A stretch of DNA of 64,000 bases from Candidatus Parcubacteria bacterium (GCA_963814275.1 CAWFCE010000001.1:3307-67306), one strand, 5' to 3'. Shown: positions 240 through 41,033, numbered from the stretch's first letter. Notes: a model not told the origin generated them from the sequence alone. A program made the numbers and translations.

Positions 240-537
240 AAATAAATTATCAATATTCAATTATCAATGATCAATCAATTATCAATTAACCAATTAACTA
301 ATGATGTTAAAAATAGCCAATTAGATGATTAAATAATTAATTGGGTTACTGCTTGCCCGCCGAAGTATTAACGCAGGCGGGGGTTACTGAAAACTGATAA
401 TTAAAATTGTGATTATAACCGAAAACAATGAAATATATTGATAAAAAATCAATAAAAACCATCTTAGCAGCCGTCTTCACTCTCGCAATCCTAGCCGTTG
501 GGGCTTTGTGGTATTTTCACCATGGTAACGTGAAGGG
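210..537. repeat. Segmental duplication of 27577-27904 (RayT 3' end, AT-rich hairpin spacer, first 110 nt of a LamG paralog)
   Basis: The alignment has a constant offset of 27367 with no indels. I see only 2 mismatches (216, 281). Identity collapses abruptly after 537/27904. Confidence 0.9.
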
Positions 538-3500
538 AGTACAAGCGGGTTGGTGGGATGACAGCTGGAGTTACCGCAAAGCGATCGTGATCAATCACAG
601 CTACGTAACAGGTGATTTGGAGAATTTTCCAGTACTCATTAGTTTGACAGACACCTCCCTCGGCAGCCACGCCCAGGTGGACGGCGATGATATCATCTTT
701 ATTTCCGACAACGGCCAGAAATTCTCGCACGAGATCGAAGCCTTCGCCACTTCGACCGGCGTGCTGGTGGCCTGGGTGAAGGTACCGCAATTATCCAGTA
801 CCGTCGATACGCCGATCTATATGTATTATGGAAACGCGGGAGCGGGGAATCAGGAGGATGTAGCGAATGTATGGGATGAGAATTACAAAGGAGTTTGGCA
901 TTTGCGCGACAGTTCAACCGCGTCGACTTCGGAGAGCACGGGACGGGCCGTACCGTTGCAGGTGATGACCGGAAACGAATCGACCGGAACAGGCAAGGAC
1001 GACGGAGCGATGCTGGTCAATGCCAACGGCGAAGGTATGTATTACGATGGGGATTATCATATAAATTCCCAGGGTAGCATCGGCTTTTGGTATAAGGAAA
1101 CCGTAAATTGCACTACGTATAATAATTTCTTTTCCGACAACGACGATGGCTATCAATTCAGCCTGATGAGAAACGCTGACGGCGGAGCGGGCGACCAGCA
1201 TCTTATCTTCTATGTCAATGGAGATGCTGCATATTTCGATACCGCGCCTAATGTATTCAATGGAGGATGGCATTACATAAACGTAACCTGGGACGATGCC
1301 GCCAACCAGAGGAAGATCTTCGTTGACGGCTCTCAGCAGGATTCCGATACTTCTTCGTTTTCACTGGGAACCCAGGGCGAGATACTGTTGATCGGCCAGG
1401 GCGATGATTGGTGGTGGACGCCGATAGATGGTTATTTGGATGAATTTCGAATATCGTCGGAAGCGCGTTCAAATGAATGGTTTGCCGCTGAATATGCGAA
1501 CCAGAATGATCCGTCACATTTCTTTTCTATACAGTCCGAGGAGACCGGGCCGGGGCCGGTTGGGTACTGGTCCTTCGATGAAGGCCGGGGGCAGACCGCG
1601 CATGATGAAAGCGGACAAGGAAACGACGGCAGCCTGGGAGAGTCGGCTGCCAGCGGTCCCCAGGACCCCCAATGGCAGGACGCGAGCCAATGCGTCAGCG
1701 GCAATTGCTTGTGGTTCGACGGCGCGGACAACGTAGTGACCCTGGGCACCCCGGCTTCTTTGGGCAATCTGGACGAGAAGACAATTACCGCCTGGTTCCG
1801 CTTCAACGGCAGCGGCGGTGGAGGCTATGGCCGGATAATCCAAAAAGAGGATGAGGCCATCGGCGGCTGGGGGCTGTATTTGGACGGAAATAATCATGAT
1901 CTTATATATTTCCATGTATTCGACAGCACTGTCGGTATCTGGCATACGCCCGTAAATTCCGTCACGGCCACCAGTACCTGGTATTTCGTCGCTCTTACCT
2001 ACGACCGGACCGATGCCGGGAACGATCCGGTGATCTACCTGAACGGCGTAGCGCAATCGGTCGTCAGACAGCAGGCGCCTGAAGGAAGCGCCAAGGATGA
2101 CCTGGCCCAGCCGGCCTACATCGGCAACCGCTACAATTCGGGCAATTATGACCGGGCATTTGACGGCAATCTCGACGAAGTCAAGATCTACCCCTACTCC
2201 CGCACGGCGGATCAGATCCGGCAGGACTACGCCGCCGGCCTGGCTGGGATCAAGTCCAATTCTGGTGTGACCGCCAGCTTCGGCTCCCGCTCCGACTCGT
2301 GGATGAGCGACGGGCTGGTCGGGTATTGGAAATTCGATGAACCGGTAGGGTCATATGATGATGACAACGGCTATGAAGACGCAATCGATTCTTCCGGCAA
2401 CGGTCGAACCGGCGACGCAAACGGAAATGCCGACGTATCTGACGGGAAGTTCGGCAACGGCGCCGCTTTCGACGGCACTACAGATTATTTAAGTTATGCC
2501 ACGAACGATTTCGGAAATATATTTACAATTAGCGTATGGGCGAAACCGGGTAATGTTTCCAATATTGAAACCATTATTGCTAATACGGTCGGCGGGGGAT
2601 CGAATGACGGTTTTAAGCTATATATCAACCATTATTTGACGAATAACAGAGCGATCGAATTCGAGACGGGAAACGGAGGCGATGTGTCTACTAGTCTCAC
2701 AGAAGACGGGACGATCGGGTTTTCCCAATGGAACCATATCGTGGTTGTAGTTAACGAAATACTCGGTAAAGCGGCAATTTATGTTAACGGCATAGATCAG
2801 ACGAAAGATAGTGATATTTTAACAGATTTTAAAACCAGCGGTACCTGGCGAATCGGCTCATTTATGGACAATCAGTATTCATTCAACGGCAAAATCGACG
2901 AAGTCCGCATCTACAACCGCGCCCTGTCCGCGGACGAGGTGAAGAAATTATACGACTGGGCGCCGGGGCCGGTGGCGTGGTGGAAGTTCGACGAGAAGAG
3001 CGGAACGACCGCCTACGACTCGATCGCTTCAACGACATACTCGGGCGGTAACCACGGGACACTCGGCACTACGACTGCCAGCCAGCCGGCCTGGACACAG
3101 GGAGAATACGGCGGAGCGCTCAGATTTGACGGCAGTGACGATTTTATAGAATTGCCCGCAAAAGACGATTTGAATATAGCCGGCGCGATAACGATTTCCG
3201 CTTGGGTAAAAACCACGTCAGCGATAGCCGGGATCTTCGGCGGGCATTATTACACTGATCCTTTTAACGGTTATAGCATCTTTATCGGCGGCGGCGGGGT
3301 TTCTGACGGTAAAATCACCTTTTGGAGCTCTGCATACGGTTCGTGGGTGGCCTCCGACTCTACAGTCAATGACGGCAACTGGCACCATGTGGCCGTTGCT
3401 GTCTCCGGTTCAAGCGCGACATTTTATCGCGACGGCGTGAGCAATGGCACAAAAACTTCAGCACAACCGGATTCGTATTCCGGCATCAGGGCAATAGGCG

Positions 3501-5128
3501 CCAGATCGGACGGTGCATATCCTCTCGACGGTCTGATCGACGATGTCAAGATCTACAACTACGCCCGCACCCAGAAGCAGATTTTGGAAGATATGTCCGC
3601 CCGAGGCGGATCCGCCTCGGGCGGAGGCGCTTTAAATTTTCCCGTCCTCCACCTGACCTTCGACGAGGGCTACGGCGATACGGCTTTTGATTCTTCGATA
3701 TTCGGGAATAACGGCACGCTCAATGCCGGCGGGTCCGGGGATAATGACACGACGGCTAAAATGTGGGATTTGAACGGCAAATTCGGGAGGGCGATGGAGT
3801 TCGATGGGGTGAACGATCGTGTGGTCGTCGCACATGATACGGCCTTCGATATTACGTCGGATATCACCTTATCCGCATGGGTCAAACGAGATACTATTAA
3901 CGGCACTTACGACTCGATCATCGGCAAACATAACAATTCGGTATGGGATTATAACCTTTTCATATGCGGCACGGGATCTTCGTGCTACCCTGCCCATGAC
4001 GATCAATTGGTCTTTGAATCGGATGCGACCGATAAGCTTTACTCGACCGAGGCGATCACCGATAACGATTGGCATTTGGCGAGTTTCACCAGATCGGGAG
4101 ATGAGTATACCTTCTATATCGACGGCGTCCCGGCCGGCGGAGGGACGAACGGAACCGCATTTGATGCCGATAGTTATTCGATATATATCGGCACGGATGT
4201 TACGACGGTTACGGACACGTACTTTGACGGCCTGATGGACGAGATCTATGTATACAATTACGCCCTTTCTGAGGACGAGATAAAAAAGCTTTATAACGGT
4301 GGTATGGCTGCGGTTATGGGGGCACCCTCGACCCCTTCGGCAAGCTCAGGGCAGGCTGCCACTTCCAGTTTTTCCAAAAGTATAGAATATTGTGTACCTG
4401 GCAGCCTGGACTACTGCGCGCCGCCGGTCGGGGAATGGAAGTTCGATAAGAAGAGCGGGACCACGACTTATGATACTTCCGGGAACGGGAACGACGGTTA
4501 TTTCGTTTCCGCGGATACGAGCCCCGTACACCGCGGCGCCAACTACTGCCATGCCGGCGCCTGCCTGCAGTTTGACGGGAGTGACGACACTGTCTACACC
4601 GCGGATTCCAGCCTGCTTCATATGAATAATTCCGGGTCCATAACTTTTTCAGCCTGGATAAATACCGGCGGATATCTTTATTCTTCAGACGGGCAGGATA
4701 TAATCCGCTACGATGATGATGACAGCGGGGATGGCGATAGTCCGAACGATAGAAATCTGTATTTATTGAGAATCTACCACCCTTCCGATAAAATTGAATT
4801 TACATACGGGCCGTCTTCCGGGTTGTCTTCGATAAATTCGAATGCCACAATCAGCAGCAACCGATGGTATCACGTCGAAGTTACCAGAGACACGGGGAAT
4901 GATACGGAAAATATTTATATTAATGGCATATTGGATAATAGCGAGACCGATACCACAACCGGGTCTTGGGAAACGACCGGACAATATATGAAAATAGGGG
5001 CGTTCTGGGATGGCGGCAGTGATTATGAATTTTTTCACGGCCTGATCGACGACGTGCGTGTCTACAACTACGCTCGCACCCCGGCGCAGATCGCCTGGGA
5101 CTATAACCGGGGCGCGCCGATCGCCTAG
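428..5128 (+). CDS. DUF2341 + multi-LamG (Laminin_G_3) surface protein, paralog 1; ends at a premature TAG before the last module
   Basis: The ORF is 1566 aa. It has an N-terminal Lys-rich segment plus a hydrophobic anchor (ILAAVFTLAILAVGALWYF). The DUF2341 signature is WWDDSWSYRKAIVINH..DGDDIIF..WVKVP..IYMYYGN. Repeated ~200-aa units follow with FDGxxDY..SAWxK..WHH..LYxDG..IDEVRIYN, the LamG pattern. The TAG at 5126-5128 sits where paralogs read Glu/His. Confidence 0.9.
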   Translation: MKYIDKKSIKTILAAVFTLAILAVGALWYFHHGNVKGVQAGWWDDSWSYRKAIVINHSYVTGDLENFPVLISLTDTSLGSHAQVDGDDIIFISDNGQKFSHEIEAFATSTGVLVAWVKVPQLSSTVDTPIYMYYGNAGAGNQEDVANVWDENYKGVWHLRDSSTASTSESTGRAVPLQVMTGNESTGTGKDDGAMLVNANGEGMYYDGDYHINSQGSIGFWYKETVNCTTYNNFFSDNDDGYQFSLMRNADGGAGDQHLIFYVNGDAAYFDTAPNVFNGGWHYINVTWDDAANQRKIFVDGSQQDSDTSSFSLGTQGEILLIGQGDDWWWTPIDGYLDEFRISSEARSNEWFAAEYANQNDPSHFFSIQSEETGPGPVGYWSFDEGRGQTAHDESGQGNDGSLGESAASGPQDPQWQDASQCVSGNCLWFDGADNVVTLGTPASLGNLDEKTITAWFRFNGSGGGGYGRIIQKEDEAIGGWGLYLDGNNHDLIYFHVFDSTVGIWHTPVNSVTATSTWYFVALTYDRTDAGNDPVIYLNGVAQSVVRQQAPEGSAKDDLAQPAYIGNRYNSGNYDRAFDGNLDEVKIYPYSRTADQIRQDYAAGLAGIKSNSGVTASFGSRSDSWMSDGLVGYWKFDEPVGSYDDDNGYEDAIDSSGNGRTGDANGNADVSDGKFGNGAAFDGTTDYLSYATNDFGNIFTISVWAKPGNVSNIETIIANTVGGGSNDGFKLYINHYLTNNRAIEFETGNGGDVSTSLTEDGTIGFSQWNHIVVVVNEILGKAAIYVNGIDQTKDSDILTDFKTSGTWRIGSFMDNQYSFNGKIDEVRIYNRALSADEVKKLYDWAPGPVAWWKFDEKSGTTAYDSIASTTYSGGNHGTLGTTTASQPAWTQGEYGGALRFDGSDDFIELPAKDDLNIAGAITISAWVKTTSAIAGIFGGHYYTDPFNGYSIFIGGGGVSDGKITFWSSAYGSWVASDSTVNDGNWHHVAVAVSGSSATFYRDGVSNGTKTSAQPDSYSGIRAIGARSDGAYPLDGLIDDVKIYNYARTQKQILEDMSARGGSASGGGALNFPVLHLTFDEGYGDTAFDSSIFGNNGTLNAGGSGDNDTTAKMWDLNGKFGRAMEFDGVNDRVVVAHDTAFDITSDITLSAWVKRDTINGTYDSIIGKHNNSVWDYNLFICGTGSSCYPAHDDQLVFESDATDKLYSTEAITDNDWHLASFTRSGDEYTFYIDGVPAGGGTNGTAFDADSYSIYIGTDVTTVTDTYFDGLMDEIYVYNYALSEDEIKKLYNGGMAAVMGAPSTPSASSGQAATSSFSKSIEYCVPGSLDYCAPPVGEWKFDKKSGTTTYDTSGNGNDGYFVSADTSPVHRGANYCHAGACLQFDGSDDTVYTADSSLLHMNNSGSITFSAWINTGGYLYSSDGQDIIRYDDDDSGDGDSPNDRNLYLLRIYHPSDKIEFTYGPSSGLSSINSNATISSNRWYHVEVTRDTGNDTENIYINGILDNSETDTTTGSWETTGQYMKIGAFWDGGSDYEFFHGLIDDVRVYNYARTPAQIAWDYNRGAPIA

Positions 5129-5851
5129 TGGACGTTCGATGAATGCAGTGGCGGCACGATCCATGACTTCGCCCCCGGCGCGGACGGCAAGGCGGCGAAC
5201 GCCAATCCCGGCACAGCTCCACCTCGGTACGACCGGCGTGACCGCCACCGGCACCTGCGCTTCGTCGTCGGACAGTTTCTGGTACAACGGGAAAGATGGG
5301 AAAGTTGGGCATGCGGGGAGTTTTGACGGGATGAGCGATTATATAGATTTAGGCTCAAATCGAGATTTAGAACCTTCAAGTATAACATTTTCATTTTGGA
5401 TAAAAAGAACTACTAGTTGGAATGATGTAAGGTATGGTTTTATTTGGACTAAGGGTAACTCCTGGAATAATAATGGTATTACTATTAGGGTTTATGACCT
5501 TGGCGGACAAAAGAATTTTTGTACTTAGGCTGATGGACTAAATTCATGCCGCGTACTTGCTGAACCGGATGAATATTATCCTTTAAATACTTGGGTACAC
5601 ATGACAATGGTATTTGATACATATAATGATGCAAGTTGGATTTACAAAAATGCCATATCCCAGCCAGTCAATTATTGGAATTCACCGCAAACTCTAAGCA
5701 AGACCAGTAACACCAAATATTTGGGATATAATCAGGCTACGGCGAATACATTAACGGTCTGATCGACGACGTGAAGATATGGAATTATGCTTTAACTCCC
5801 GAGCAAGTGCGTACTGAATATAACGGCGGGGCGGTTAAATTCGGGAATTGA
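5129..5851 (+). pseudogene. Decayed last LamG module and tail of paralog 1
   Basis: Homology to paralog C-terminal modules continues here (WTFDECSGGTIHD.., QLHLGTTGVTATGTCASSSDSFWYNGKDGK, ..GLIDDVKIWNYALTPEQVRTEYNGGAVKFGN*). It is interrupted by TAG 5126, a frameshift at ~5210, TAG 5526 and a frameshift at ~5745. Confidence 0.85.
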
Positions 5852-12166: not shown

Positions 12167-12259
12167 TTGAAAAAGGATACAAGGATACAAGATACAAGGA
12201 TACAAACAATATTCAAATTTCAAATCACAAATATCAAACATTTAACAATATAATTAATC

Positions 12260-19687: not shown

Positions 19688-19699
19688 ATTACTATAGGC

Positions 19700-29099: not shown

Positions 29100-29105
29100 A
29101 ATTTT

Positions 29106-29207: not shown

Positions 29208-29243
29208 GATAAATTAGAAATTAATAACAACCAGTTTAGAATA

Positions 29244-32200
29244 ATGAAATCTATAAAATTCACAATCTACTTCTTCGCCTTTCTGATCTCGTTCAGCCTT
29301 GTTAAGCCTGCCTTTGCCGCGCGCCTCTGGTCGTCGGGGTTCGAGCTGGACAGCCTGACCGCCGGCATGGAGTGGACTGCGATCGAAAATACCGGCGCTA
29401 CCATGTCTATCCAGGGGACGACCAAGCGGAGCGGAGATTATGCTTTGCGCTGCAATCCCAACGGCACGAATTGGGGTACTGTCCAATTCCAATCGTCCGC
29501 CCTGGGCGGCTATACCTATTATGTCAGAACATACCTGAATATCCACACCAGCATGTCGACCGAAGACGCGATCGCGATTTTAGGAACCAGTAATTATTCG
29601 AGCTCCGTCGGTTTGGCGCTCAATACTGACGATACGATCGATCTATATTATTATAGCGGTTCCGTTCATGTTCTCGGAACAAGCGATCTTTTGGAAAAAG
29701 ACACCTGGTATATGTTGGAATTTTCCTATAATTACAGCACCGGAGCCGTCGCCGCCAGATTGAACGGCAGCCAGTTCGCCGGCGGATCGTCGGTAGCCTC
29801 GCAAGCCTGGAATTATTTGTTTATCGGCGAAGGCTTCGGCAGCGGTTATACCGGCGACATATATTTCGACGATGTCGCGTTTAACGATTCAACCGGTTCG
29901 GACCAGAATTCCTGGCCCGGCGAGGGCAGTATCGTGCATGTTTATCCCGACTCCGCGGGCGATAATGACGATTCGGCACAAAGCCCGAATGGCTATCTGG
30001 AGGTAGACGAACAGCCGACTCCGGATGGCGACACCAGTTATGCCAATATCGATAATAACAGCGATATACTCGATGTCGACTGTGAATCATATTCGAGTGC
30101 GGGGATCGGGTCCGGCGATACGGTCACGCTGGTCCAGGTCGGCTACCGGGCCAGGGGTGCTGACGCAACCAGCCGGGCCGGTGTTCTTCGCATCAAAGGA
30201 ACGCCCGGCGGAACGATTTCGGAAAGTTCGACCCTGACGCGAAGCTCCGGAAGCTACCAGACCAATGCCCCGAGCCCGTACGGCTATAAATTGACCGCAT
30301 ATGTCAACCCTGAGGATAGCTTAGCCTGGGAGCCGAATGATATCAGTTCAATGCAGATCGGTTTTCGGGCAACGGACGCGGCACCGGATATCTACCTTAC
30401 CTCTCTCTGGGCCTTGGTCGAGTACGTACCGGTCGGGGGCGGAGGCGGCAGCGATGAAGAAACGGCTGAAGCGATGGTCTTTACGGTTTCCGCCTGGGTC
30501 AAGCCGATCGGCAGTATCGCGAATAAAGCGATCGCGGTCAAAGATGATGAGATCCGGCTGGTCACGGACTCAAGCGGACATCCGTTATGCCAAATACATG
30601 ACGGGACAAGCTGGCGCGCGGCCGCTACTTCGAGCCAGGCACTCGCGCTGAACGAATGGGCGCACGTGGCCTGCGCCTATGACCGGTCAAATCTGAAAAT
30701 CTACGTCAATGGCAGCGAGACCGCGAGCCGGGAGGAAACGAGCGACGTCTATAACACAGCCAATTCCTGGTTTTTCGGCCATGACGAAAGCGCCGCGTAC
30801 GGCGATTTCCAGGGCTCGATCGACGAATATAAAATCTACCCCTACGCCCGGACGGCCGACCAGATCCGGCAGGACTACGCCGCCGGTTTGGCCGGGATCA
30901 AATCAAATAGCGGCGTGGCCGCCAGCTTTGGGTCGCGGTCCGACTTGTGGATGAGCGACGGGCTGGTCGGGTATTGGAAATTCGACGAGCCGACGACTGC
31001 CGAGACCTACGAAGACTCCTCCGGTAACGGCAACACCGGCACGGCTGCCGGCAATGCCTCGACCACGGCCGGGAAATACGGCAACGGCGGGGTGTTTGAT
31101 GGGGACGGGGATTATGTAGAAATTTCTGATTTAGATGCATTTAAAACTATTTCATTTTGGGTTAAACCGGAAATAAGAAGCGGCTATGATTATTATTTTG
31201 TTACAGATTATGACGGATCTGATTTTGAAATTTCTGTTGATGATCATGGGTATCTGGTTGTCGGTGATTTTATATATAAAAATGGAACTTATTTGGATAT
31301 AGATGACTATATCGACACATGGAATCATATCGTTGTGTCCTTAGAAAACAATAAATACAGGTTTTATTTTAACGGTGAATTTATTCAGGAGGGTAATTTT
31401 GGCAGTTTTACAGGTTCTCATCCAGCTTATATCGGCGTATGGGGGACTGATTATAGCAGCGGTGACTTGCATTATTTCAACGGCCAAATCGACGAAGTCC
31501 GCATTTACAACCGCGCCCTGTCCCCGGACGAAGTGAGGAAATTATACGACTGGGCGCCGGGGCCGGTGGCGTGGTGGCGCTTCGACGAGCTCAGCGGCTC
31601 CACTGTCTACGACAGTGCCGCAAGTTCGACTTATTCGGGCGGCAACCACGGAAGTTTTGGTGGCGGCAGCGCCAACCCGACTTGGACACAAGGGAAGTAT
31701 GGCGGGGCGCTCAGATTTGATGGGAGTGATGATTATGTGTCATTGCCCGATTCCATGGTCCTTAACAGCCTTGATACGAGCCTGACCGACGTTACGGTCG
31801 GCGCCTGGGTGAAACTGAATTCCGATCCCGACGCGAGAGTCGGAATCATTTCCCTGGGCGATGTCGGCAACGACTACTGGGCCGCGACTGTCGGTACGGA
31901 TGTAGATAACAATAAATTCTCATACTATGTCGATCAGACAGGCAGCGGGACCAGTTCCGCTACGGCTTTGCCGGTCGGCGAATGGCATTACGTGGCCTTT
32001 TCCCGGACCGTGGACGGAACGGTTAATTTCTACTATGACGGGAATCCGGACGGGACGGAAACGGGTACGGTCAGCTCGGCGGCAAACGGAACGAAGTCGA
32101 TCGGCATCAGGCTGGAAGCGCCGGTTTCTTTCAACGGTCTGATCGACGATATCAAGATCTACAATTACGCCCGCACCCAGAAACAGATACTGGAAGACAT

Positions 32201-33200
32201 GACTAACGGCCCTGCTCTTAAATCTCCAATCTTAAATTTTAAATTTGAAGAGGGCTACGGCGATACGGTTTATGATTCATCCGGGAACGGGAAGAACGCT
32301 ACGCTTCATCCCGGCGCGACCGGCGGCAATCAGAGCGTGTCCGCGATGTGGGACCAGGGCGGCAAATTCGGCAAAGCGGTCGAATTCGACGGACTCAGCG
32401 ATTATATATCCTTCCCGTTCGACGATATTTACGGAACTTCTTTCGAACGGAACAATACGGTAGCGGCCTGGTTCAAGACGTCCAGCACGAGTTTCCAGGC
32501 GATATTCGGCGCCCGGGAATCGGTCGAGGGAAGCGAAGATTTGTACAGGCTTGATACTAACGAAGGACGCGTTGAGGCGGTGATACGCACCGAGCGCTAC
32601 ACCGGAGACGGAGATGCGGTCTTCGTCCGGACTCCGGTTGCCTATAATGACAGCGAGTGGCACCAGGCCGCCATGACCATGAACGACAGGATATTGTCGC
32701 TTTATGTCGACGGGGTGAAGCAGGGATCGACGGCGGTCGCCGGATATAGCTCCGAGATAAACGTCAACTACATCGGCGCCGAGGAAAACGACGGCGGGCC
32801 GGGCAACGGTTATGGCAGCTTCTTCGAGGGCCTGATCGACGATGTCCGCATCTACAACTACGCCCTCGACGAGGACGAAGTGAAAACCCTCTATAACCAG
32901 GGCGCGGCCGCGGTCATGAGCGCGCCCCAGCCCAAAGACAACGACGGCACGACCGTGACCGGCGCGGCCGGGAAATACTGCATCCCCGGCGACACGGCGC
33001 AGTGCGACGCCCCGGTCCTCGAGATGGATTTCAACGAAATGGCCGGCACGACCACGCATGACCGGTCCGGCCATGGCAATGACGGATATTTCGTTAGTCA
33101 GGCCAGCTCGCCGGTCTGGAAAGAGGCCAATAATTGCCATTCCGGTTCGTGCCTCATGTTCGACGGGAGCGATGATTATATTAGCTATAATTCAAGTTAA
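29244..33200 (+). CDS. Secreted protein: novel ~400-aa N-terminal jelly-roll-like domain fused to LamG modules 1-5 of the paralog scaffold
   Basis: The signal peptide MKSIKFTIYFFAFLISFSLVKPAFA starts at ATG 29244; the ORF-track start 29178 lies inside the hairpin. From ~30470 the sequence resumes LamG module 1 (MVFTVSAWVKP..) and then linker classes b to e. It ends at an in-frame TAA (33198-33200) inside a LamG module. Confidence 0.8.
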   Translation: MKSIKFTIYFFAFLISFSLVKPAFAARLWSSGFELDSLTAGMEWTAIENTGATMSIQGTTKRSGDYALRCNPNGTNWGTVQFQSSALGGYTYYVRTYLNIHTSMSTEDAIAILGTSNYSSSVGLALNTDDTIDLYYYSGSVHVLGTSDLLEKDTWYMLEFSYNYSTGAVAARLNGSQFAGGSSVASQAWNYLFIGEGFGSGYTGDIYFDDVAFNDSTGSDQNSWPGEGSIVHVYPDSAGDNDDSAQSPNGYLEVDEQPTPDGDTSYANIDNNSDILDVDCESYSSAGIGSGDTVTLVQVGYRARGADATSRAGVLRIKGTPGGTISESSTLTRSSGSYQTNAPSPYGYKLTAYVNPEDSLAWEPNDISSMQIGFRATDAAPDIYLTSLWALVEYVPVGGGGGSDEETAEAMVFTVSAWVKPIGSIANKAIAVKDDEIRLVTDSSGHPLCQIHDGTSWRAAATSSQALALNEWAHVACAYDRSNLKIYVNGSETASREETSDVYNTANSWFFGHDESAAYGDFQGSIDEYKIYPYARTADQIRQDYAAGLAGIKSNSGVAASFGSRSDLWMSDGLVGYWKFDEPTTAETYEDSSGNGNTGTAAGNASTTAGKYGNGGVFDGDGDYVEISDLDAFKTISFWVKPEIRSGYDYYFVTDYDGSDFEISVDDHGYLVVGDFIYKNGTYLDIDDYIDTWNHIVVSLENNKYRFYFNGEFIQEGNFGSFTGSHPAYIGVWGTDYSSGDLHYFNGQIDEVRIYNRALSPDEVRKLYDWAPGPVAWWRFDELSGSTVYDSAASSTYSGGNHGSFGGGSANPTWTQGKYGGALRFDGSDDYVSLPDSMVLNSLDTSLTDVTVGAWVKLNSDPDARVGIISLGDVGNDYWAATVGTDVDNNKFSYYVDQTGSGTSSATALPVGEWHYVAFSRTVDGTVNFYYDGNPDGTETGTVSSAANGTKSIGIRLEAPVSFNGLIDDIKIYNYARTQKQILEDMTNGPALKSPILNFKFEEGYGDTVYDSSGNGKNATLHPGATGGNQSVSAMWDQGGKFGKAVEFDGLSDYISFPFDDIYGTSFERNNTVAAWFKTSSTSFQAIFGARESVEGSEDLYRLDTNEGRVEAVIRTERYTGDGDAVFVRTPVAYNDSEWHQAAMTMNDRILSLYVDGVKQGSTAVAGYSSEINVNYIGAEENDGGPGNGYGSFFEGLIDDVRIYNYALDEDEVKTLYNQGAAAVMSAPQPKDNDGTTVTGAAGKYCIPGDTAQCDAPVLEMDFNEMAGTTTHDRSGHGNDGYFVSQASSPVWKEANNCHSGSCLMFDGSDDYISYNSS

Positions 33201-33206
33201 TCTAAT

Positions 33207-34967
33207 TTGAATTTTGTAGCCCCTGCTACGATTTCGTTTTGGATGAAATCAGGCTATGATCCAGGTAATCAAGCTGAAAGGGTTTATAGTATTAGTCAAG
33301 GGGGTGCCACCAGTAACTATTTTTATATTACTTTGGGGAAGCCAAGCGCATCCGGATTGAGCAACCAACTTGTTTGTATCGCATCAACCGTAGGGGGAAC
33401 AAATTCCGCTTGTTACACAACATCAGACCGTAATCAGCTTTTTAATAATGAGTGGCACCAGGTGGCAATCGTTACCGACGGCTCTGAATGGAAACTTTAT
33501 ATCGATAATACGGAGAAAACCTTATCTGACGATTTGGGTAGCGGCAATATCGGCACATACGGAGCGGTTAGTTTTGCTAATAATATCAAAATCGGTTCTT
33601 ATTACGGAAATACCAATTCAGATTTTTATCTTGGTATGTTGGACCATTTTAGTATCTTCAACTACGCCCGCACCCCGGCGCAGATCGCCTGGGATTATAA
33701 CGGCGGCAAGCCGATCGCCGAATGGCGGTTCGACGAATGTTCCGGAGGGATCATCCACGATGAAAGCGGGAATGGATATGACGGCACGCTTAACCTTGGC
33801 GTTACCGGAATTATTACAGTTGGCACTTGCGCCAGCTCAAGCAATTCATTCTGGTATTTAGGCAAGAACGGCGCCTATAAAGCGGCTGGGAGTTTCGACG
33901 GGGCCAGCGACTATATTGACATCGGCGATACAAACCTCAATATCGAATCCATCGGTTTTTGGATATTCCCGCACAACACAACCAATTACGTCATCGACCT
34001 GGACGGCGGCACCCATACCGTCGCCCTCGCGAACGGACGAATAAGCGCCAACGGCTTTGCCGATCCGCAGATCTATGTAAACGGAAAATCAGGCAGGAGC
34101 ATTACCCGGATGGCCTGGCAGCACGTGTTAATAACGACGGATACCGCTTTCGAAGCGAGTAATCTCCGCCTCGGCCGGATCGGCGGCAACTATTACGACG
34201 GCCTGATCGACGACGTCAGATTCTTTAATTACCCCCTGACGCCGGAACAGATCAAGACCGAATATACGGGAGGAGCGATGCGCATTGGCGGCGTACCCTC
34301 GCAGACCGTGGTTACCGCCGGCACCTGCACCCAGCGATTCAGCGACGACTTCAACCGGCCGGATAACGACAATATCGGTCCGGACTGGATTGAGAACGGA
34401 AGCGGCAATTTAAAAATCGCCAGCAATGTATTGCGTTTCGATAAGGACGCCGATTACGAATGGGGCAGTGCCGACTCCGTATCCGAGCTTATGTCCGATA
34501 CCCAATATGCGAAGTTCACGATTACTGATTTCGGCGGTTATGTTTTGCCAAATTCCGCAGAATTAATTTTGAGAAGCGGTGCGGTGCAATATTTGATTTA
34601 TATAAGCCGGGACTCAAGCGATAATATTTACTGGAAGGACAATGTGGGCGATATCCAGGGAACTACTATCAGCGTGGATAACGGCGTATCCGTCGCCGCC
34701 ATGGTCAGAGGCGCGGGCGATGACACCAACGTGAGCATTTGGCTGGATATGACCGAAAATACGCCTTTCAGCTCCGGCGCGCTTTGCCTTGATACCGGCA
34801 AGCCCTGCTGGGATTCGGCTTCGGACGCGCCGGATATTTATTTTACCAATAATCCCGTAAATGCCGCGGACGACGGAAAAAATTTCGGGATCGGCGTCTG
34901 GGAGACTTACGGTGTTCTTGGCAACAATATAGATATCGATGATTACTTCGCCGGGGACTGCGAGTGA
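33207..34967 (+). CDS. Continuation of the 29244 gene after a single in-frame TAA: LamG modules, linker f, tail-like motif, extra C-terminal jelly-roll domain
   Basis: This ORF is in the same frame as 29244..33200. ..DGSDDYISYNSS*SNLNFVAPATISFWMK spans a single LamG module. It contains FNYARTPAQIAWDYNGGKPIAEWRFDECSGG and FFNYPLTPEQIKTEYTGGAMRIGG, then a ~225-aa extra domain. Confidence 0.75.
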   Translation: MNFVAPATISFWMKSGYDPGNQAERVYSISQGGATSNYFYITLGKPSASGLSNQLVCIASTVGGTNSACYTTSDRNQLFNNEWHQVAIVTDGSEWKLYIDNTEKTLSDDLGSGNIGTYGAVSFANNIKIGSYYGNTNSDFYLGMLDHFSIFNYARTPAQIAWDYNGGKPIAEWRFDECSGGIIHDESGNGYDGTLNLGVTGIITVGTCASSSNSFWYLGKNGAYKAAGSFDGASDYIDIGDTNLNIESIGFWIFPHNTTNYVIDLDGGTHTVALANGRISANGFADPQIYVNGKSGRSITRMAWQHVLITTDTAFEASNLRLGRIGGNYYDGLIDDVRFFNYPLTPEQIKTEYTGGAMRIGGVPSQTVVTAGTCTQRFSDDFNRPDNDNIGPDWIENGSGNLKIASNVLRFDKDADYEWGSADSVSELMSDTQYAKFTITDFGGYVLPNSAELILRSGAVQYLIYISRDSSDNIYWKDNVGDIQGTTISVDNGVSVAAMVRGAGDDTNVSIWLDMTENTPFSSGALCLDTGKPCWDSASDAPDIYFTNNPVNAADDGKNFGIGVWETYGVLGNNIDIDDYFAGDCE

Positions 34968-35025
34968 TCGATTTGATTAGGTTAGGACGGAATATAACGG
35001 CGGAGCGGTTAAATTCGGTAATTAA
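34964..35025 (+). pseudogene. Internally deleted orphan copy of the LamG gene tail
   Basis: Positions 34990-35025 encode EYNGGAVKFGN*. The upstream ..GATCGATTTGATTAGGTTAGGACG is a deleted version of the GLIDDV..EQVKQ portion. Confidence 0.7.
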
Positions 35026-35168
35026 TAATCCAATGATCCAATGATCCAGTGACCCAATCAATATTTAATATCAAATATATAATTTTCAAACCGACGAAGT
35101 GTTTAAATATTTGATATTGAATATTAGATATTGATTGGATCATTGGGTTACTGGATTATTGAAAATTA
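35026..35168. repeat. AT-rich imperfect inverted repeat (CCAATGAT/AATAATCCA word family) upstream of the dead RayT copy
   Basis: The left arm AATAATCCAATGATCCAATGATCCAGTGACCCAATCAATATTTAATATCAAATAT pairs with the right arm ATATTTGATATTGAATATTAGATATTGATTGGATCATTGGGTTACTGGATTATT. Confidence 0.8.
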
Positions 35169-35459
35169 ATGGAAGGGTTATTTAAAAATAAATACCGTAT
35201 CGATTCAACCAGATTAAAAGATTATGATTATTCGCAAGACGGATCATATTTCGTAACGATTTGCACGAAGGAAAGGGAATTGTTTTTCGGGGAGGTCCAA
35301 AATAATAAAATGATTTTGAATGATTTGGGGGTAATAGCGGAAAAATATTGGTTGGAAATCCCACAGCATTTTGAAAATACAGAATTAGACGAATTCATCA
35401 TCATGCCGAACCATATTCACGGGATAATCGTGATCGATAATGACCGCGGACGGCGGTGA
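35169..35459 (+). pseudogene. RayT-type transposase, dead copy (N-terminal half only)
   Basis: This 96-aa ORF matches 26956-27240 up to the HUH motif (MPNHIHGIIVIDN). It then has a frameshift and no C-terminal Tyr-containing half. The next gene starts at 35736. Confidence 0.8.
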
Positions 35460-35484
35460 TGCGGCCGATCGTGGCAACGAAAAT

Positions 35485-35700
35485 GTCCGTGGTAGAGACG
35501 TTGCAATGCAACGTCTCTACGCGGCGCAACCCACCGAACCCGAATGCCGGTCTGGCGATATCAATCGCACCGTCCGTGGTAGAGACGTTGCAATGCAACG
35601 TCTCTACGCGGCGCAACCCACCGAACCCGAATGCCGGTCTGGCGATATCAATCGCACCGTCCGTGGTAGAGACGTTGCAATGCAACGTCTCTACGGACGC
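35485..35700. repeat. Tandem 87-bp repeat x2.5, each unit carrying the palindrome GTAGAGACGTTGCAATGCAACGTCTCTAC
   Basis: Unit starts are at 35485, 35572 and 35659 (period 87 = 29 codons). The repeat occupies the position of the intragenic palindrome of the intact RayT (27291-27328). Confidence 0.9.
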
Positions 35701-38700: not shown

Positions 38701-41033
38701 GTGGCTCAAATTCTGGCAGCCCGATCCCAACAACAACAAGCGCTAGTTTGAATAGCGTCGATCTACTTCTTGGGGTAGGCGAGATTGACGGAGGAAGCGA
38801 AGTGAACTGGAATGGCTCAATTGATGACGTCCGCATCTACAACTACACCCGCACCCAGAAGCAGATTTTGGAGAACATGGCTAACGGTCCTGCTCTTCAA
38901 TCTCCAATCTTAAATCTTAAATTTGATGAGGGCTATGGTGATACGGCTTATGATTCGAGCGTATTTAAAAATAACGGTACATTGAATTCGGGCGGAAGCG
39001 GCGCCAACGATTCGAATACTAAAATGTGGAACAAGAACGGGAAAATCGGCGGAGCGATGGAGTTTGACGGGAATGATAGCGTATCAGTCACCACGGATGC
39101 AAGCCTGGAGTTGCCTGGTTCCGGAACAGTAGCCGCATGGTTCAAAAAATCATTATCCAGCGGGTCGGATAATGCTTATTTAGCCGGTAATTGTAATTGG
39201 TCAACTGACCGGAACGGTTATTGCCTGGTTTTTTATGGTAATACTTTAACCGGAGAGTTGGCCAGCGCTTCAAACTCCCAAAGATTATCAACTGCAAAAG
39301 TATATAATGACAATCAGTGGCATTTCGGGGTATTTACCTGGGATGGTAATGAACTTTCCCTGTATGTCGATGGTCGGCATGCTGTCTCGTCGATATCTCA
39401 AACGTTAACTCCGGTATATGTCAATGACTTAATGGTCGGAAAAAATTCCGCAACAGATGGATATTATTTCGGTGGTTTGATCGACGACGTCCGCGTCTAC
39501 AACTACGCCCTGTCCGATGACGAAATAAAAACCCTTTATAACCAGGGTGCGGCTACTGTCCTGGGGTCGGTTGGAAGCACGGCCGGGTCATCCGATCCGG
39601 CTGCGACTAGCAGCAATGCCGCTAGTCTTGCCTACTGCGTCCCCGGCTCGGACGACTACTGCGCACCACCGGTGCTCGAGCTCAACTTTGAGGAAATGGG
39701 CGGGGGGACAAATTACGATACCAGTGGTAGCGGAAATAACGGCACTTTGGGCGGAGGTACCTCAGCTTATCGGCCGGAATGGGAACGTGTCGGAAAAGTC
39801 GGGCATGCCTTGCGGTTTGACGGTAATGATGATTATACGATTTTATCAGTCAATGCTTACAACTCGTTAAGCGAAGGCACTATTTCTTTGTGGTTCAAAT
39901 CAGAAAGCACAGGGAATGATTACGGAAATATGTTTGCCGCCGACGGCACCTCCGAACCTTGGCTGGAATTGGGTTATGAGAGATCAAGCCAGCGAATATA
40001 TTTCGGTATGGAGGACGGATTCTGTGCGAGCGACTATTATGGTTTTGCTCCAGTTCCGGGCAATGGGAACGACTGGCATCAGGCCGTTTGGACCGTTGAT
40101 AACGGCGGTAATGCCCTTTATATCGACGGCGTAAAAAGCACGCCGTCATACGATCGAGGTGATTCGTCCGGAACCTGTTTCTTCGCTGACGCTTTCGGGA
40201 TACATTCGATTTATTATGCAGTCGGCTGTGACTGGAGGCCCAGCTCGTGTTATTTGCCGGAAATGTATGGCGGTTTGATCGACCAAGTCAAGATCTACGA
40301 CTACGCCCGCACCCCGGCGCAGATCGCCTGGGATTATAATGGCGGGGCGCCGATCGCGCACTGGACCTTTGATGAATGCAGTGGCGGAGTGATTCATGAT
40401 GAATCAGGCAATGGCAATGACGGCCAGCTTTACCTTGGTACGACCGGTGTCGCTGCCACCGGCACATGCGCCTCGTCGTCAGACAGTTTCTGGTATAACG
40501 GACGAGAAGGGAAATATAATAGCGCCGGGAGCTTTGACGGGGTGAGTGATTACGTAAAGATCAGCAATAATACTAATTTGGACCTGCAAGCGCCGTTATC
40601 GGTATCGGTTTGGGTCAATCCGGATGATAATGATGCGGATCTGTTCACCCACGGCAAACAGGACGCCTCGCCGTTCCTTGAATATCAGCTGATGCTCCTC
40701 GATACCGATGATCGCGTCCGCTGGTCCGTATCCACCGGCGGCGTCTTGAAAAATCTGGACAGTAAAAGCGTTTATACGACCGGCCGATGGATGCACATAA
40801 TAGGAACCTGGGACGGCGCGACCATGAAATTGTACATTAACGGAGTACTCGATAATGAAACCGCCAAGTCCGGTACGATCGGTGAATTGAACCAGGACAG
40901 CTATATCGGCGGCTGGACCGATTACGAGCGGTTAACCGGGAAATTGGATGATGTCAAAGTTTATAATTACGCTTTGACTCCTGAACAAGTTAAGACTGAG
41001 TATAATGGGGGAGCGGTGAAATTCGGGTATTAA
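35736..41033 (+). CDS. DUF2341 + seven-LamG surface protein, paralog 7, the only fully intact copy
   Basis: The ORF is 1765 aa, with an alternative start at ATG 35769. It has the anchor IILIIFAISAIVTVGFVFF, the DUF2341 signature, all six linker classes in order, and the tail ..YNYALTPEQVKTEYNGGAVKFGY*. Confidence 0.9.
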   Translation: MKKSKNKITEIMKKYNKIILIIFAISAIVTVGFVFFSRKDAQEAKAGWWNDFWSYRKAIVINHSYVAGDLENFPVLISLTDTSLGAHAQADGDDIIFISDNGQKLSHEIESFATSTGVLVAWVKIPNLSSGDDTVINMYYGNAGVGNQEDVGNVWDDNYRAVWHMDNTTDSSNKGVTLTANGGASVSGSGKMSSAYLIDGANENLSFSENNQIATAGTISFWYKETTAAAGYNNFFAASNNQYRFMIYRNNDDDVLMSGIGDDSYAYFGTVNVFDGSWRYVTFTWDDASNERKIFVNGSQQSSTDTTSFSIDPITTFRIGNEYDGGGQPINGLMDEFRISSVIRSDTWFETEFNNQNSPATFLSVQTEETGPGPVGYWSFDEGYGTTAHDESASGNDGTITGATWQDESMCVSGKCLYFDGSNDLVEINNESNFDNFDEITISAWVKNLETPGDHQIISKRSAWDSTGIPFEVQQSTDYAGDVFTWLIRGNANDLYGPIGEANKWYHVVTTWDGTTMFMYINGILSQTKTAGVSITDNNEKVTIGSLPGGGEYWKGYIDEVKIYFYARNADEIKQDYAAGLAGIKSNSGVAASFGSKSDSWMSDGLVGYWKFDEPTTAETYEDSSGNGNSGTAHDNASTTAGKYGNSFVGGGVGSSDRVLLDNTDIYDDLSEGTIAAWVKWDSNSSYDEIFGAGSAMEFEFAMSSNNKFEIWSRNTCDGGQLNAEVTVSNPSDWHHLVYTTNSAGNNMYVDGELQQPNYISGSAATNKFFRHCNTGVTHYQVGAVYNNILTPIEIFDGRIDEVRIYNRALSADEVKKLYDWAPGPVAWWRFDELSGSTVYDSAASSTYSGGNHGQFGGGDANPAWTQGKYGGALEFDGYDDEVNVGDITALNNASAFTFSAWLKQDVLNAKAGFLYKWVDSSNMIVGETWSDGHLFFQISNGIAWRDRRILNYSNYVKSNEWFYFSAVYDGHGATDNDKLKLFIDGISRGSNSGSPIPTTTSASLNSVDLLLGVGEIDGGSEVNWNGSIDDVRIYNYTRTQKQILENMANGPALQSPILNLKFDEGYGDTAYDSSVFKNNGTLNSGGSGANDSNTKMWNKNGKIGGAMEFDGNDSVSVTTDASLELPGSGTVAAWFKKSLSSGSDNAYLAGNCNWSTDRNGYCLVFYGNTLTGELASASNSQRLSTAKVYNDNQWHFGVFTWDGNELSLYVDGRHAVSSISQTLTPVYVNDLMVGKNSATDGYYFGGLIDDVRVYNYALSDDEIKTLYNQGAATVLGSVGSTAGSSDPAATSSNAASLAYCVPGSDDYCAPPVLELNFEEMGGGTNYDTSGSGNNGTLGGGTSAYRPEWERVGKVGHALRFDGNDDYTILSVNAYNSLSEGTISLWFKSESTGNDYGNMFAADGTSEPWLELGYERSSQRIYFGMEDGFCASDYYGFAPVPGNGNDWHQAVWTVDNGGNALYIDGVKSTPSYDRGDSSGTCFFADAFGIHSIYYAVGCDWRPSSCYLPEMYGGLIDQVKIYDYARTPAQIAWDYNGGAPIAHWTFDECSGGVIHDESGNGNDGQLYLGTTGVAATGTCASSSDSFWYNGREGKYNSAGSFDGVSDYVKISNNTNLDLQAPLSVSVWVNPDDNDADLFTHGKQDASPFLEYQLMLLDTDDRVRWSVSTGGVLKNLDSKSVYTTGRWMHIIGTWDGATMKLYINGVLDNETAKSGTIGELNQDSYIGGWTDYERLTGKLDDVKVYNYALTPEQVKTEYNGGAVKFGY

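Follow-up and report, generated by a model that had tools for sequence, protein, structure and literature searches.

A tandem array of DUF2341-LamG genes in a Candidatus Parcubacteria genome: conserved junctions, divergent cores and probable cassette shuffling

Introduction

The locus described here raised the question of why gene copies built on one scaffold, most of them broken, stand in tandem in a Candidatus Parcubacteria genome. The window, i.e. the whole stretch of DNA that was analysed, comprised 64,000 nucleotides (GCA_963814275.1 CAWFCE010000001.1:3307-67306). A first-pass annotation had recognized in it the logic of gene-conversion surface variation (pilE/pilS, vlsE, msp2), with conserved linkers, variable cores and mostly silent copies. 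DUF2341 has been described in very large proteins of Patescibacteria, and concanavalin/LamG proteins have been considered putative attachment factors (PMC11809585; PMC12911398). A literature search found no paper on the junction/core mosaic and recombination of DUF2341-LamG proteins.

Architecture of the array

Positions 428-41033 of the window were occupied by a tandem array, the unit of which consisted of a signal peptide, DUF2341 and seven, or in one case eight, Laminin_G_3 modules (Table 1). PF10102 (DUF2341) and six to eight PF13385 (Laminin_G_3) matches were found at all loci by a Pfam scan, and one 1763-column scaffold of the family HMM map fitted every locus co-linearly. Hence, the shared scaffold of anchor, DUF2341 and seven LamG modules, as first annotated, was confirmed, with eight modules in L2. 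PF10102 was located near the N-terminus with 39-47 bits in L1, L2, L3 and L6 (gathering cutoff 23.4). Seven PF13385 stretches were recorded in L6, the modules of which were also scanned one by one, and eight in L2. Full-length homologs at 30-44% identity spanned 98-100% of the query and retained the seven-module order and the junction motifs. By these features and by their N-terminus, the array genes are assigned to the DUF2341-Laminin_G_3 family of the Patescibacteria type. The translations and the family alignment revealed a hydrophobic N-terminal signal/anchor followed by A-x-A and GWWNDSWSYRK, and cleavage and export of the array proteins are predicted.

A total of 613 homologs were obtained at E<=1e-10, mostly of 1700-1900 aa, from Falkowbacteria, Parcubacteria, WWE3 and Roizmanbacteria. 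The array genes belong with these giant DUF2341 and Laminin_G_3 proteins of Patescibacteria/CPR, which databases annotate as 'DUF2341 domain-containing protein' or 'LamG domain-containing protein'. Intact tandem arrays of two to three copies occurred in other genomes. The window held 6-7 copies in tandem, the majority with interruptions, whereas the five DUF2341-LamG contexts inspected elsewhere held 1-3 copies, all intact. As part of the overall explanation preferred below, the array is probably a lineage-specific tandem expansion of a family widespread in Patescibacteria (CPR), with ~1750 aa per protein.

Tail-like debris was observed 5' of L1 in the sibling contig L001, and the array may extend past the window start. 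Genes of the four-helix-bundle / 23S rRNA-IVP family also stood immediately 5' of the homologous LamG genes of L013, L014, L016 and L017, and homologues of the REP-associated tyrosine transposase-like gene flanked LamG genes in L013, L014, L017 and L018.

Table 1. Features of the array and its spacers in window coordinates (HMM, columns of the family scaffold; RAYT, REP-associated tyrosine transposase).
Feature	Position	Strand	Description
Tract common to L1 and L5a	207..537 = 27574-27904	+	3 mismatches in 331 bp; ~76% identity from 538
L1	428..5851	+	Signal/anchor-DUF2341-7xLamG gene; Pfam, HMM map, comparison with sibling contig L001
L1 cassette tract	800..2345	+	First LamG core after DUF2341, linker a, next core, linker b; ~identical to an otherwise different L002 gene
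L1 linker f	5039..5130	+	Window/L001 divergence step: 2 differences in the 5 kb before it, ~2.5% plus indels from here
L2	6026..11943	+	Anchor ATG 6026 out of frame with body, 1-bp shift near 6122; Pfam, HMM map
Orphan C-terminal tail	12047..12160	+	HMM 1725-1762, after L2; GGCCTGATCGACGACGTG motif match at 12071
Four-helix-bundle / 23S rRNA-IVP family gene	12254..12652	+	Spacer upstream of L3; Pfam, TIGR02436
L3	12860..19241	+	Pseudogene as it stands; HMM map, Pfam
Tandem repeat	19145..19688	+	223 bp, 2.4 copies, 95%; gene tail and AT-rich downstream element duplicated
Orphan tails	19345-19461, 19571-19684	+	Within the 223-bp repeat
DUF559 (Vsr-like endonuclease fold) gene	19863..20249	+	Spacer upstream of L4; Pfam, NCBIfam
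L4	20252..26867	+	Pseudogene as it stands; at least 6 frame changes; HMM map
RAYT-like gene (IS200/Y1, HUH motif)	26956..27606	+	216 aa; Pfam, NF047646
L5a	27795..29099	+	5' part of split gene, HMM 7-440
L5 insertion	29085..30462	+	1.36 kb; AT-rich spacer, new signal peptide, ~400-aa domain
L5b	29244..34967	+	New N-terminus fused to HMM 445-1761
Conserved-tail remnant (..YNGGAVKFGN*)	34987..35026	+	After L5b
RAYT-like gene and repeats	35163..35695	+	Truncated RAYT-like gene (35163-35459), then 2.4 perfect 87-bp repeats, just 5' of L6
L6	35736..41033	+	Sole uninterrupted copy, 1765 aa, DUF2341 and 7 Laminin_G_3

Junctions and cores

Conserved blocks alternated in the window loci with cores of 7-35% amino-acid identity, in agreement with the earlier description of the cores as barely alignable. 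The 18-mer GGCCTGATCGACGACGTG was present in four exact copies (5039, 12071, 17080 and 19146) and in seven further copies with <=2 mismatches. It terminated modules of differing classes, as had been claimed, when no such occurrence was expected by chance. The linkers, however, were found to be far from conserved nearly to the nucleotide. Their column-wise nucleotide identity between window paralogs was 66-89%, local BLAST identity was 75-90% over 100-560 bp, and the pooled junction dS was 0.8-1.8. The longest exact matches between loci lay mostly in the range of 25-50 bp and peaked at 86 and 110 bp.

The same junction motifs were kept in 14 distant full-length homologs. Since the motifs are conserved in distant Patescibacteria with one to three intact copies, no archive is needed to explain them. 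Among 88 homologs, the median identity was near 0.5 in the junctions and near 0.2 in the cores (95th percentile <=0.30), and the identity profile among the window paralogs equalled the profile against other genomes. The junction omega was 0.12-0.26 in this dS range and was slightly raised in the broken copies (0.20-0.26 versus 0.12-0.16). Each junction is, as far as the alignments indicate, position-specific and held by purifying selection family-wide. Junctions agreed more closely at synonymous sites within the genome than across genomes, which fits either a younger common ancestry or an old concerted evolution.

Two neighbouring LamG modules of L6 (nt 37446-38978) were modelled with AF2 (pLDDT 80), and the model contained two beta-sandwiches joined by a strand-helix-strand junction. 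The junctions are structural elements, in which the last strand of one module (..IDEVRIYNxAL..) leads through a short helix into the first strand (..W.FDE..) of its successor. The closest solved folds found by Foldseek, likewise ligand- or receptor-binding beta-sandwiches, were laminin LG4-5, neurexin LNS (LNS2-6) and the receptor-binding domain of clostridial toxins (lectin-like domain of neurotoxin Hc), with E 3e-12 to 1e-10 and a probability of 1.0. Identity to these folds was 9-15% and the two-domain TM-scores were 0.2-0.36, low enough that the single-domain fold alone, and not the domain arrangement, is common to both.

Recombination tracts

Against L002, dS was 0.02 in the cores of the L1 cassette tract. 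The N block had a dS of 1.0, and past 2345 the two genes did not align. The difference profile bounded this 1.5-kb tract by the DUF2341 block and linker b. The window and L001 were near-identical over 1-5000 and diverged from linker f. The 331-bp tract of L1 and L5a was 99% identical, covered the upstream region and the signal peptide, and included the 110-bp exact match; it was interpreted as the product of a recent duplication or conversion within the genome, ending where the AGWWNDSW block starts. In the sibling contigs L001, L002 and L015, tracts with breakpoints in conserved blocks were observed, whose partners were not the supposed archive copies of the window, and none of the sibling-haplotype cores was drawn from the window's own copies.

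The sharing of cores was incongruent between loci. The core just 5' of linker b was shared, at 58.5% identity, by L2 and L4 only, and the first LamG core was common to L1, L2 and L6. In L5, the last core matched, at 54% identity, the last core of a gene on L013 (the second of its tandem genes), which belongs to another genome, and this foreign-looking core had a GC3 of 59% there, compared with 26-34% in its neighbours. Among the window cores, GC3 varied between 30 and 80%, the background being 57-64%. These anomalies suggest imported cores. In the set of 88 homologs, pairs with one core in common shared the others just 0-50% of the time, and the PHI test gave p<0.001. Recombination at the junctions is real, and the in-register homologous exchange at linkers proposed in the first-pass annotation gained support from the tracts, the breakpoints, the incongruent core sharing and the PHI test.

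No sign of hypermutation was detected in the recently shared cores, in which changes were few and omega was below 1. Because of this, and because no nucleotide similarity was detectable between cores, the cores are indirectly indicated to have diverged anciently, with the limit that alignments at ~20% identity are unreliable.

Lesions of the copies and the intact gene

The L1 ORF (428-5128) stopped at an in-frame TAG (5126-5128), and the frame was broken at 5215-5738 by one extra and four missing bases relative to L001. The counterpart in L001 was intact (1808 aa) and had TGG in place of TAG. In L2, the body ORF 6184-11943 (1919 aa) was intact, with the extra module at about 7383-7861, and the same offset between anchor and body frames was present in L002. 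The L3 frame changed near 15210, 16550 and 18030 (at least three frameshifts), its third LamG module after DUF2341 was decayed (16662-16957), and a DUF5122 beta-propeller was inserted in frame at 13408-14792. In the sibling contig L015, the L3 frame was intact over HMM 700-1103 with an extra C at 18029, and the first 367 aa of L4 formed an uninterrupted ORF. The L4 frame changes of the window were placed at about 20430-20476, 20692, 20930-21288, 24570, 25119-25169 and 25480. L5 was split at HMM 440/445 by the insertion, whose ~400-aa domain had no match in Pfam or NCBIfam; L5b contained an in-frame TAA (33198-33200) and an extra C-terminal extension of ~225 aa (34290-34964).

With the lesions of L1-L5 mapped, L6 was, as annotated, the only fully intact copy in the sequence as it stands. 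The claim that most copies are broken held in part: L1-L5 all carry lesions in this sequence, but several are absent from the sibling haplotypes L001 and L015. The broken state is therefore recent, strain-specific or partly artefactual. All lesions would be real on our reading, but the frameshifts of L1, L3 and L4 may instead be consensus errors of a strain-heterogeneous long-read assembly. The indel contexts were neither homopolymers nor simple-sequence repeats, unlike those of a phase-variable contingency locus.

No L6 core was shared with the other window loci, the L6 cores being 16-47% identical in amino acids to the other copies. Compared with the rest of the window, 0% of L6 was found at >=95% nucleotide identity and 61% of it had no nucleotide match. 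Since L6 had no core in common with other copies, there was no trace of conversion from an archive to an expression site, and the sequence comparison gave no indication of a recent relationship between L6 and a donor. Each 87-bp repeat upstream of L6 carried the palindrome GTAGAGACGTTGCAATGCAACGTCTCTAC.

Discussion

It is proposed that the array represents a family of adhesin-like proteins under birth-and-death dynamics, in which cassette shuffling generates the diversity, and not a pilE/pilS-type system; judged on the sequence comparisons, this explanation as a whole is on balance the probable one. Homologous recombination would start in the conserved junction DNA and swap whole cores, and such shuffling would be the main source of variants. 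Cassettes would pass from paralog to paralog and from strain to strain, and occasionally across lineages, over population and evolutionary time scales. Turnover of the array by duplication, unequal crossing-over, which would yield the orphan tails and the eighth module, and domain insertion would be accompanied by an inactivation of copies that is recent and strain-specific. The majority of the copies resemble duplicates in recent decay rather than a dedicated silent archive. A point against this explanation is that some 30 kb of dead DNA is more than a streamlined genome usually carries, which could be a sign that a function has been retained.

The reading put forward in the annotation was programmed gene conversion, with L6 as the expression site and L1-L5 as maintained silent donors copied via the linkers. 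Neisseria pilE/pilS, Borrelia vlsE/vls, Anaplasma msp2 and Mycoplasma genitalium MgPa/MgPar are likewise multicopy surface families with conserved regions around variable segments, and they share with the window array non-functional copies and recombination between copies. A tandem array with a single intact copy, stretches of 25-86 bp that L6 shares exactly with other loci, situated in linkers and long enough for RecA, the breakpoints in conserved blocks of the sibling haplotypes and the recent L1/L5a tract would all suit such a system. The palindrome-bearing repeats could in principle start recombination. However, the silent donors of pilE/pilS- and vlsE-type systems are promoterless, 5'-truncated cassettes, whereas the supposed donors here are full-length genes, and each of L1-L5a has a signal peptide and an upstream spacer of its own. 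The flanks are not near-identical here (66-89% nucleotide identity and dS 1.0-1.8 for L6 versus the others), and junction conservation is at the protein level, family-wide, and extends to single-copy genomes. Frameshifts or stops lie in cores and junctions of L3, L4, L1 and L5b, so donors would pass on the damage, and the lesions differ between haplotypes. Chimeric junctions and population heterogeneity were indeed seen, though with partners outside the window's copies, and the variant cores of the sibling contigs are absent from this array. With no donor-derived core in L6 and such divergent linkers, the pilE/pilS, vlsE and msp2 logic was not sustained and is considered quite improbable. The broken state could alternatively be largely an artefact, a mixed-haplotype long-read consensus having added 1-bp indels and some substitutions to copies mostly intact in each cell; the loci would then be hypervariable among coexisting strains. 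This would explain why L001, ~identical over 5 kb, has TGG for TAG and differs by seven 1-bp indels over 5215-6122, and why L015 supplies the base missing at 18029 and has both the third LamG module after DUF2341 and the 5' end of L4 intact. The contig_NNNNN names and deletion-rich small contigs suggest a nanopore/Flye assembly, and the omega of broken-copy junctions is only slightly raised. Against this, no frameshift occurs in L6, in the L2 body or in the neighbouring giant genes (1659, 3343 and >1654 aa), which take up 20 kb; the indels lie outside homopolymers, the L2 anchor frameshift recurs in an independent contig (L002), and the 1.36-kb insertion of L5 and the TAA/TAG nonsense codons are atypical of consensus errors. 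An artefact on this scale was judged unlikely.

Plain divergence of old tandem duplicates, with constrained junctions and with cores drifting or positively selected, would account for a family-wide junction/core pattern through protein constraint and for the synonymous divergence of the junctions. It is contradicted by the near-identical tracts with sharp bounds and does not account for core sharing that is incongruent even with another genome, for the shared core with its GC3 anomaly, for the PHI result or for the low co-sharing of core pairs among the 88 homologs, and it is held to be very improbable. Hypermutation targeted at the cores, whether by a diversity-generating retroelement or another mutator, was brought to mind by the Avd-like four-helix-bundle gene adjoining LamG genes in the window and at four other loci, and by the A-biased substitutions between the window and L001 at 5127-6020. 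Yet the cores differ by indels and over their full length, and recently shared cores are ~identical with omega <1. The Pfam/NCBIfam scans of the window's named ORFs contained no reverse transcriptase, and the window self-BLAST contained no template/variable repeat (TR/VR) pair. Such a retroelement combines a reverse transcriptase with TR/VR showing A-specific differences; the Avd-like gene alone was present, and hypermutation is scarcely credible.

Cassette shuffling resembles a different class of systems. The Plasmodium var/PfEMP1 genes and the mosaic tail-fibre genes of phages recombine at conserved 'homology blocks'. The array is like them in the alternation of blocks with diverse segments, in breakpoints within the blocks, in incongruent segment sharing across genes and genomes and in diversity on the population scale. 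Organism, fold and scale differ, the present case being LamG beta-sandwich modules of a CPR bacterium, and the likeness is one of analogy. Unlike in those families, exchange here is held in register by seven ordered, position-specific junction classes.

The array proteins are most likely extended lectin-like adhesins displayed on the surface of an episymbiont. Their ~150-aa cores, almost unique to each gene, would form the ligand-binding faces, and the diversity of these cores may be maintained by selection from hosts or phages.

Array Composition and Family Membership

Six to seven paralogous genes were arranged in an array on the plus strand between positions 428 and 41033 (the copies L1 to L6, Table). 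In the Pfam search, PF10102 (DUF2341) was placed near the N-terminus and followed by 6-8 PF13385 (Laminin_G_3) domains in L6, the L2 body and the first ORF of L1; DUF2341 was present in L3 too. Seven complete Laminin_G_3 domains were obtained in L6 when its modules were scanned singly. A family HMM of 1763 columns was made from 14 full-length homologs, and every locus mapped onto it co-linearly. Based on the Pfam hits and this map, the array anatomy given by the first-pass annotation was correct, and an 18-mer that it had placed at the ends of modules of different classes was confirmed.

At E ≤ 1e-10, 613 homologs were found, mostly of 1700-1900 aa, and most of them covered 98-100% of L6 at 30-44% identity. 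They originated from Falkowbacteria, Parcubacteria, WWE3, Roizmanbacteria and other Patescibacteria. The window proteins are ordinary members of the Patescibacteria DUF2341-LamG family. Tandem arrays with intact copies were present in other genomes (three copies at locus L016, two each at L013 and L017), and the window array looks like a larger, partly decaying form of an ordinary arrangement. Single-copy genomes are also known (L014 and L018). Upstream of L1 (550-620 of the sibling contig L001; window 1-427), a degenerate tail fragment ending in GGAVKFGN and a stop was accompanied by the 3' end of a gene of REP-associated tyrosine transposase-like (RAYT-like) type. It is probable that the array, with its debris, reaches past the window start.

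Table. Features of the array, with homologous features in other Patescibacteria loci (L013-L018).
Feature	Positions	Strand	Description
L1 first ORF	428-5128	+	in-frame TAG 5126-5128
L2	ATG 6026; body 6184-11943	+	body 1919 aa; signal/anchor out of frame, body otherwise intact; eighth LamG module
L3	12860-19241	+	three frame changes; third LamG module after DUF2341 decayed
L3 beta-propeller insert	13408-14792	+	in-frame, ~460 aa; DUF5122/Reg_prop repeats; ~60% GC
L4	20252-26867	+	at least 6 frame changes
L5	27795-34967	+	one gene, split at HMM 440/445 by 1.36-kb insertion 29085-30462
L6	35736-41033	+	1765 aa, intact
Orphan tails	12047-12160, 19345-19461, 19571-19684, 34987-35026	+	copies or remnants of the C-terminal tail
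223-bp unit	19145-19688	+	tandem repeat of tail and AT-rich downstream element
Four-helix-bundle gene	window 12254-12652; L013 15307-15693; L014 9601-9981; L016 9652-9996; L017 9789-9992
RAYT-like gene	window 26956-27606, 35163-35695; L013 9316-9972; L014 15514-16164; L017 15450-16136; L018 9186-9839, 15675-16313
AT-rich downstream repeat	11949-12025, 19247-19323, 19470-19546, 26873-26898

Junctions and Cores

The linkers had been described as nearly invariant in nucleotides, which did not hold. The identity of the junctions on the HMM columns was 66-89%, and a pooled junction dS of 0.8-1.8 with an omega of 0.12-0.26 was determined between the window loci. In self-BLAST the linkers were 75-90% identical over 100-560 bp, the exact matches being mostly 25-50 bp long (the largest 86 and 110 bp).

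The position-specific junction motifs were also kept in distant family members among the 14 full-length homologs. They included EETGPGPVGYWSFDEGYG, IDEVKIYPYARTADQIKQDY..GLVGYWK, IDEVRIYNRALS..LYEWAPGPVAHWKFDE, YNYARTQKQILEDM, YNYARTPAQIAWDYN and the ..EYNGGAVRFG tail. Along the protein, identity followed the same profile among the window paralogs as against the genes of two other genomes: junctions were 65-90% identical within the window and 55-83% between genomes, when cores were 7-35% identical in both comparisons. Among 88 full-length homologs, the median identity was near 0.5 for junctions and near 0.2 for cores (95th percentile ≤0.30).

Further, two adjacent LamG modules of L6 (nt 37446-38978) were modeled by AlphaFold2 as two beta-sandwiches (pLDDT 80, pTM 0.77). 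In the model, the junction ran from the last strand of one domain through a helix and APGP into the first strand of the domain that follows. Low confidence was confined to a stretch of linker b, which in view of the model is probably flexible. The nearest solved folds were laminin LG4-5, neurexin LNS and clostridial neurotoxin receptor-binding domains, and a sequence search of the PDB gave one weak LamG match only (4qvs_A). As the motifs were kept in distant members and the junction was modeled as strand-helix-strand, it was concluded that the junction/core pattern is a structural, family-wide property. The pattern was also present in the single-copy genomes.

The GC3 was higher in junctions than in cores at all loci, with junction values of 60-88% in the window and 49-70% in lower-GC genomes (L013, L014). 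Such high junction GC3 is what GC-biased gene conversion would give at hot spots of recombination; a codon-usage effect is another possible source.

Recombination at the Junctions

Recombination at the junctions, as proposed in the first-pass annotation, was supported by tracts shared with sibling contigs, by cores shared among loci and by the PHI test. The sibling contigs were obtained from ENA analysis ERZ25039495 and were found for L1/L2 and L3/L4 only; the clusters for L2, L5, L6 and the remaining recorded L3/L4 ORFs were singletons. L001 showed 2 differences from window positions 1-5000, was ~2.5% different with indels from linker f (5039-5130) on, and was unrelated beyond ~6500. The sibling contig L002 carried a different gene that shared a nearly identical 1.5-kb tract with L1 (window ~800-2345), with a dS of 0.02 in both cores. 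Its left boundary was the DUF2341 block (dS 1.0) and its right boundary was where linker b ends; beyond linker b, the junctions of L002 were L3/L4-like. The next gene on this contig was 97.5% identical to L2. Within the window, the upstream region and signal peptide of L1 and L5a, the part of L5 before its insertion, differed at 3 of 331 positions (207-537 vs. 27574-27904), and the identity fell to ~76% at the start of the AGWWNDSW block.

Core types were shared incongruently among the loci. The core that immediately precedes linker b was common to L2 and L4 only (58.5% identical; 78% in nucleotides, 8012-8570 vs. 22261-22819), and the first LamG core after DUF2341 was common to L1, L2 and L6 (43-47%). 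L3 was closest to L4 in junctions d, e and the tail, and L5 was closest to L6 in junctions a and c. The last core of L5 was 54% identical to that of the second tandem gene at L013, in another genome, where the GC3 of the shared core was 59% against 26-34% for its neighbors in the gene. The GC3 of cores within single window genes varied from 30 to 80%, with a local background of 57-64%. The PHI test gave p<0.001 (495 informative junction sites, six loci). Among the 88 homologs, pairs that shared one core above 45% shared each other core 0-50% of the time.

Recently shared cores were nearly unchanged, with an omega <1, the dN/dS estimates covering the alignable segments, since different cores were saturated or unalignable. 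Therefore, the core diversity is old and shuffled, not freshly generated. A DGR was rejected, as Pfam/NCBIfam scans of the named ORFs gave no reverse transcriptase and self-BLAST of the window gave no TR/VR pair.

Lesions of the Interrupted Copies

The lesions either arose recently in particular strains or are in part artefacts of a consensus made from mixed strains and, judging by the contig names, from long reads. Several comparisons favored a contribution of the consensus. L001 carried an intact 1808-aa L1 with TGG in place of the window TAG; within the gene (5215-5738), the window L1 had one base more than L001 and lacked four others, which broke the frame, and the two sequences were seven 1-bp indels apart over 5215-6122. 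A base absent from the window at 18029 was present in the sibling contig L015, in which the frame was open across the module that had decayed in L3, as were the first 367 aa of L4; L015 itself was deletion-rich in other parts. Moreover, the junction omega of the broken copies was just slightly raised. However, 20 kb of neighboring giant genes, L6 and the L2 body were frameshift-free, the indels lay outside homopolymers, the offset between the L2 anchor and body was common to the window and L002, and the L5 insertion and the TAA/TAG nonsense codons were unlike consensus-type errors. With the L5 insertion, the L5b part gained a new signal peptide along with a domain of ~400 aa (29244-30470). L5b was also interrupted by an in-frame TAA at 33198-33200 and was extended by ~225 aa at its C-terminus (34290-34964); no Pfam/NCBIfam match was found for the domain or the extension. 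The beta-propeller insert of L3 was located between DUF2341 and the LamG modules, and the other copies were without it.

Between otherwise identical sequences (window 5127-6122 and L001 5871-6871), 12 of 16 substitutions were A in the window, which lacked six single bases and had one extra. These A-biased differences could stem from decay toward AT, from sequence imported out of a decayed copy or from an error of the consensus.

An alternative genetic code or stop-codon recoding was rejected: the real gene ends used TAG, TGA and TAA, and the internal stops were one TAG and one TAA, the rest being frameshift-induced. Phase variation by repeat slippage was rejected as well, the indels not being in repeats. 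Hypervariable loci in long-read metagenome-assembled genomes can mimic pseudogene fields, and sibling haplotypes are worth checking before any 'archive' is called.

Neighboring Genes and Elements

A gene for a four-helix-bundle/23S rRNA-IVP (Avd-like, TIGR02436) protein was found directly upstream of DUF2341-LamG genes with a gap of ~5-210 bp, a synteny seen in the window and four unrelated Patescibacteria loci. A RAYT-like (HUH/Y1) gene of ~215 aa flanked the LamG genes in several genomes. The one beside L6 was truncated and followed by 2.4 perfect 87-bp repeats with a 29-bp palindrome, situated 40 bp ahead of the L6 start codon. Between the L5b tail remnant and this truncated gene lay an AT-rich inverted repeat, long and imperfect (35027-35160; ..AATCCAATGATCCAATGATCCAGTGACCCAATCAATAT.. 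/ ..ATATTGATTGGATCATTGGGTTACTGGATTAT..). An AT-rich repeat of AATTTATAATTTGT units followed the stop codons of L2, L3, L4 and the orphan tails, and this conserved element is possibly a terminator. Upstream of L6, a scan for sigma-70 promoters and for terminators gave 1 match vs. 3.2 expected, and tRNA and Rfam scans of the window gave no hits. After the array (43440-64000), three giant right-handed beta-helix/NosD-like proteins of 1659, 3343 and >1654 aa were encoded, all intact and mutually paralogous, with repeated blocks 79-89% identical (e.g., 53005-53658 vs. 60315-60968).

Archive and Reservoir Models

The first-pass annotation was mostly right in its observations and half right in their interpretation: junction recombination was upheld, when a silent archive feeding one expression site was not supported. 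The L6 cores showed no resemblance to those of any other window copy (16-47% amino-acid identity), 61% of L6 had no similar nucleotide sequence in the rest of the window, where no part of L6 was matched at 95%, and the junction DNA of L6 differed from the others by a dS of 1.0-1.8. The interrupted copies were complete genes with their own 5' ends, and their frameshifts lay inside the cassettes. The variant cores of L001 and L002 were not found in the window array. The evidence says that the array is not an expression-site/archive system. In the defining tests the array differed from a pilE/pilS-type system, and its working is like that of mosaic surface-protein families in which recombination takes place at conserved homology blocks. 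Recent use of an archive by L6 is excluded, and any use by L6 would be occasional.

We consider it rather improbable that the array is a working cassette reservoir, in which the junctions would serve as in-register anchors and the interrupted copies would be kept for their movable intact cores. Under such a model, these cores would move into an expressed gene, the palindrome-bearing RAYT remnant beside L6 might promote the transfer, and the junction GC3 would be as GC-biased gene conversion gives. If true, the reservoir would let an uncultivated episymbiont switch host range or antigens by recombination.

Biological Significance

Host recognition and attachment of Patescibacteria are largely unknown, and almost none of these bacteria are cultivable. 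The literature mentions DUF2341 in giant proteins of Patescibacteria, as well as a putative attachment role of concanavalin/LamG proteins (PMC11809585, PMC12911398). The junction/core mosaic or its recombination was not found described in the literature on DUF2341 with LamG, CPR with LamG and pseudogenes, or concanavalin with Patescibacteria. The family spans the phylum. Its cores, nearly unique to each gene, lie between seven junctions of fixed structure and order, and whole-core exchange was caught here between genes, strains and lineages. Therefore, the DUF2341-LamG family is a concrete candidate for what varies in the surface that CPR bacteria present to hosts or phages, and junction-anchored primers or long reads could read out its cassette combinations in natural populations.
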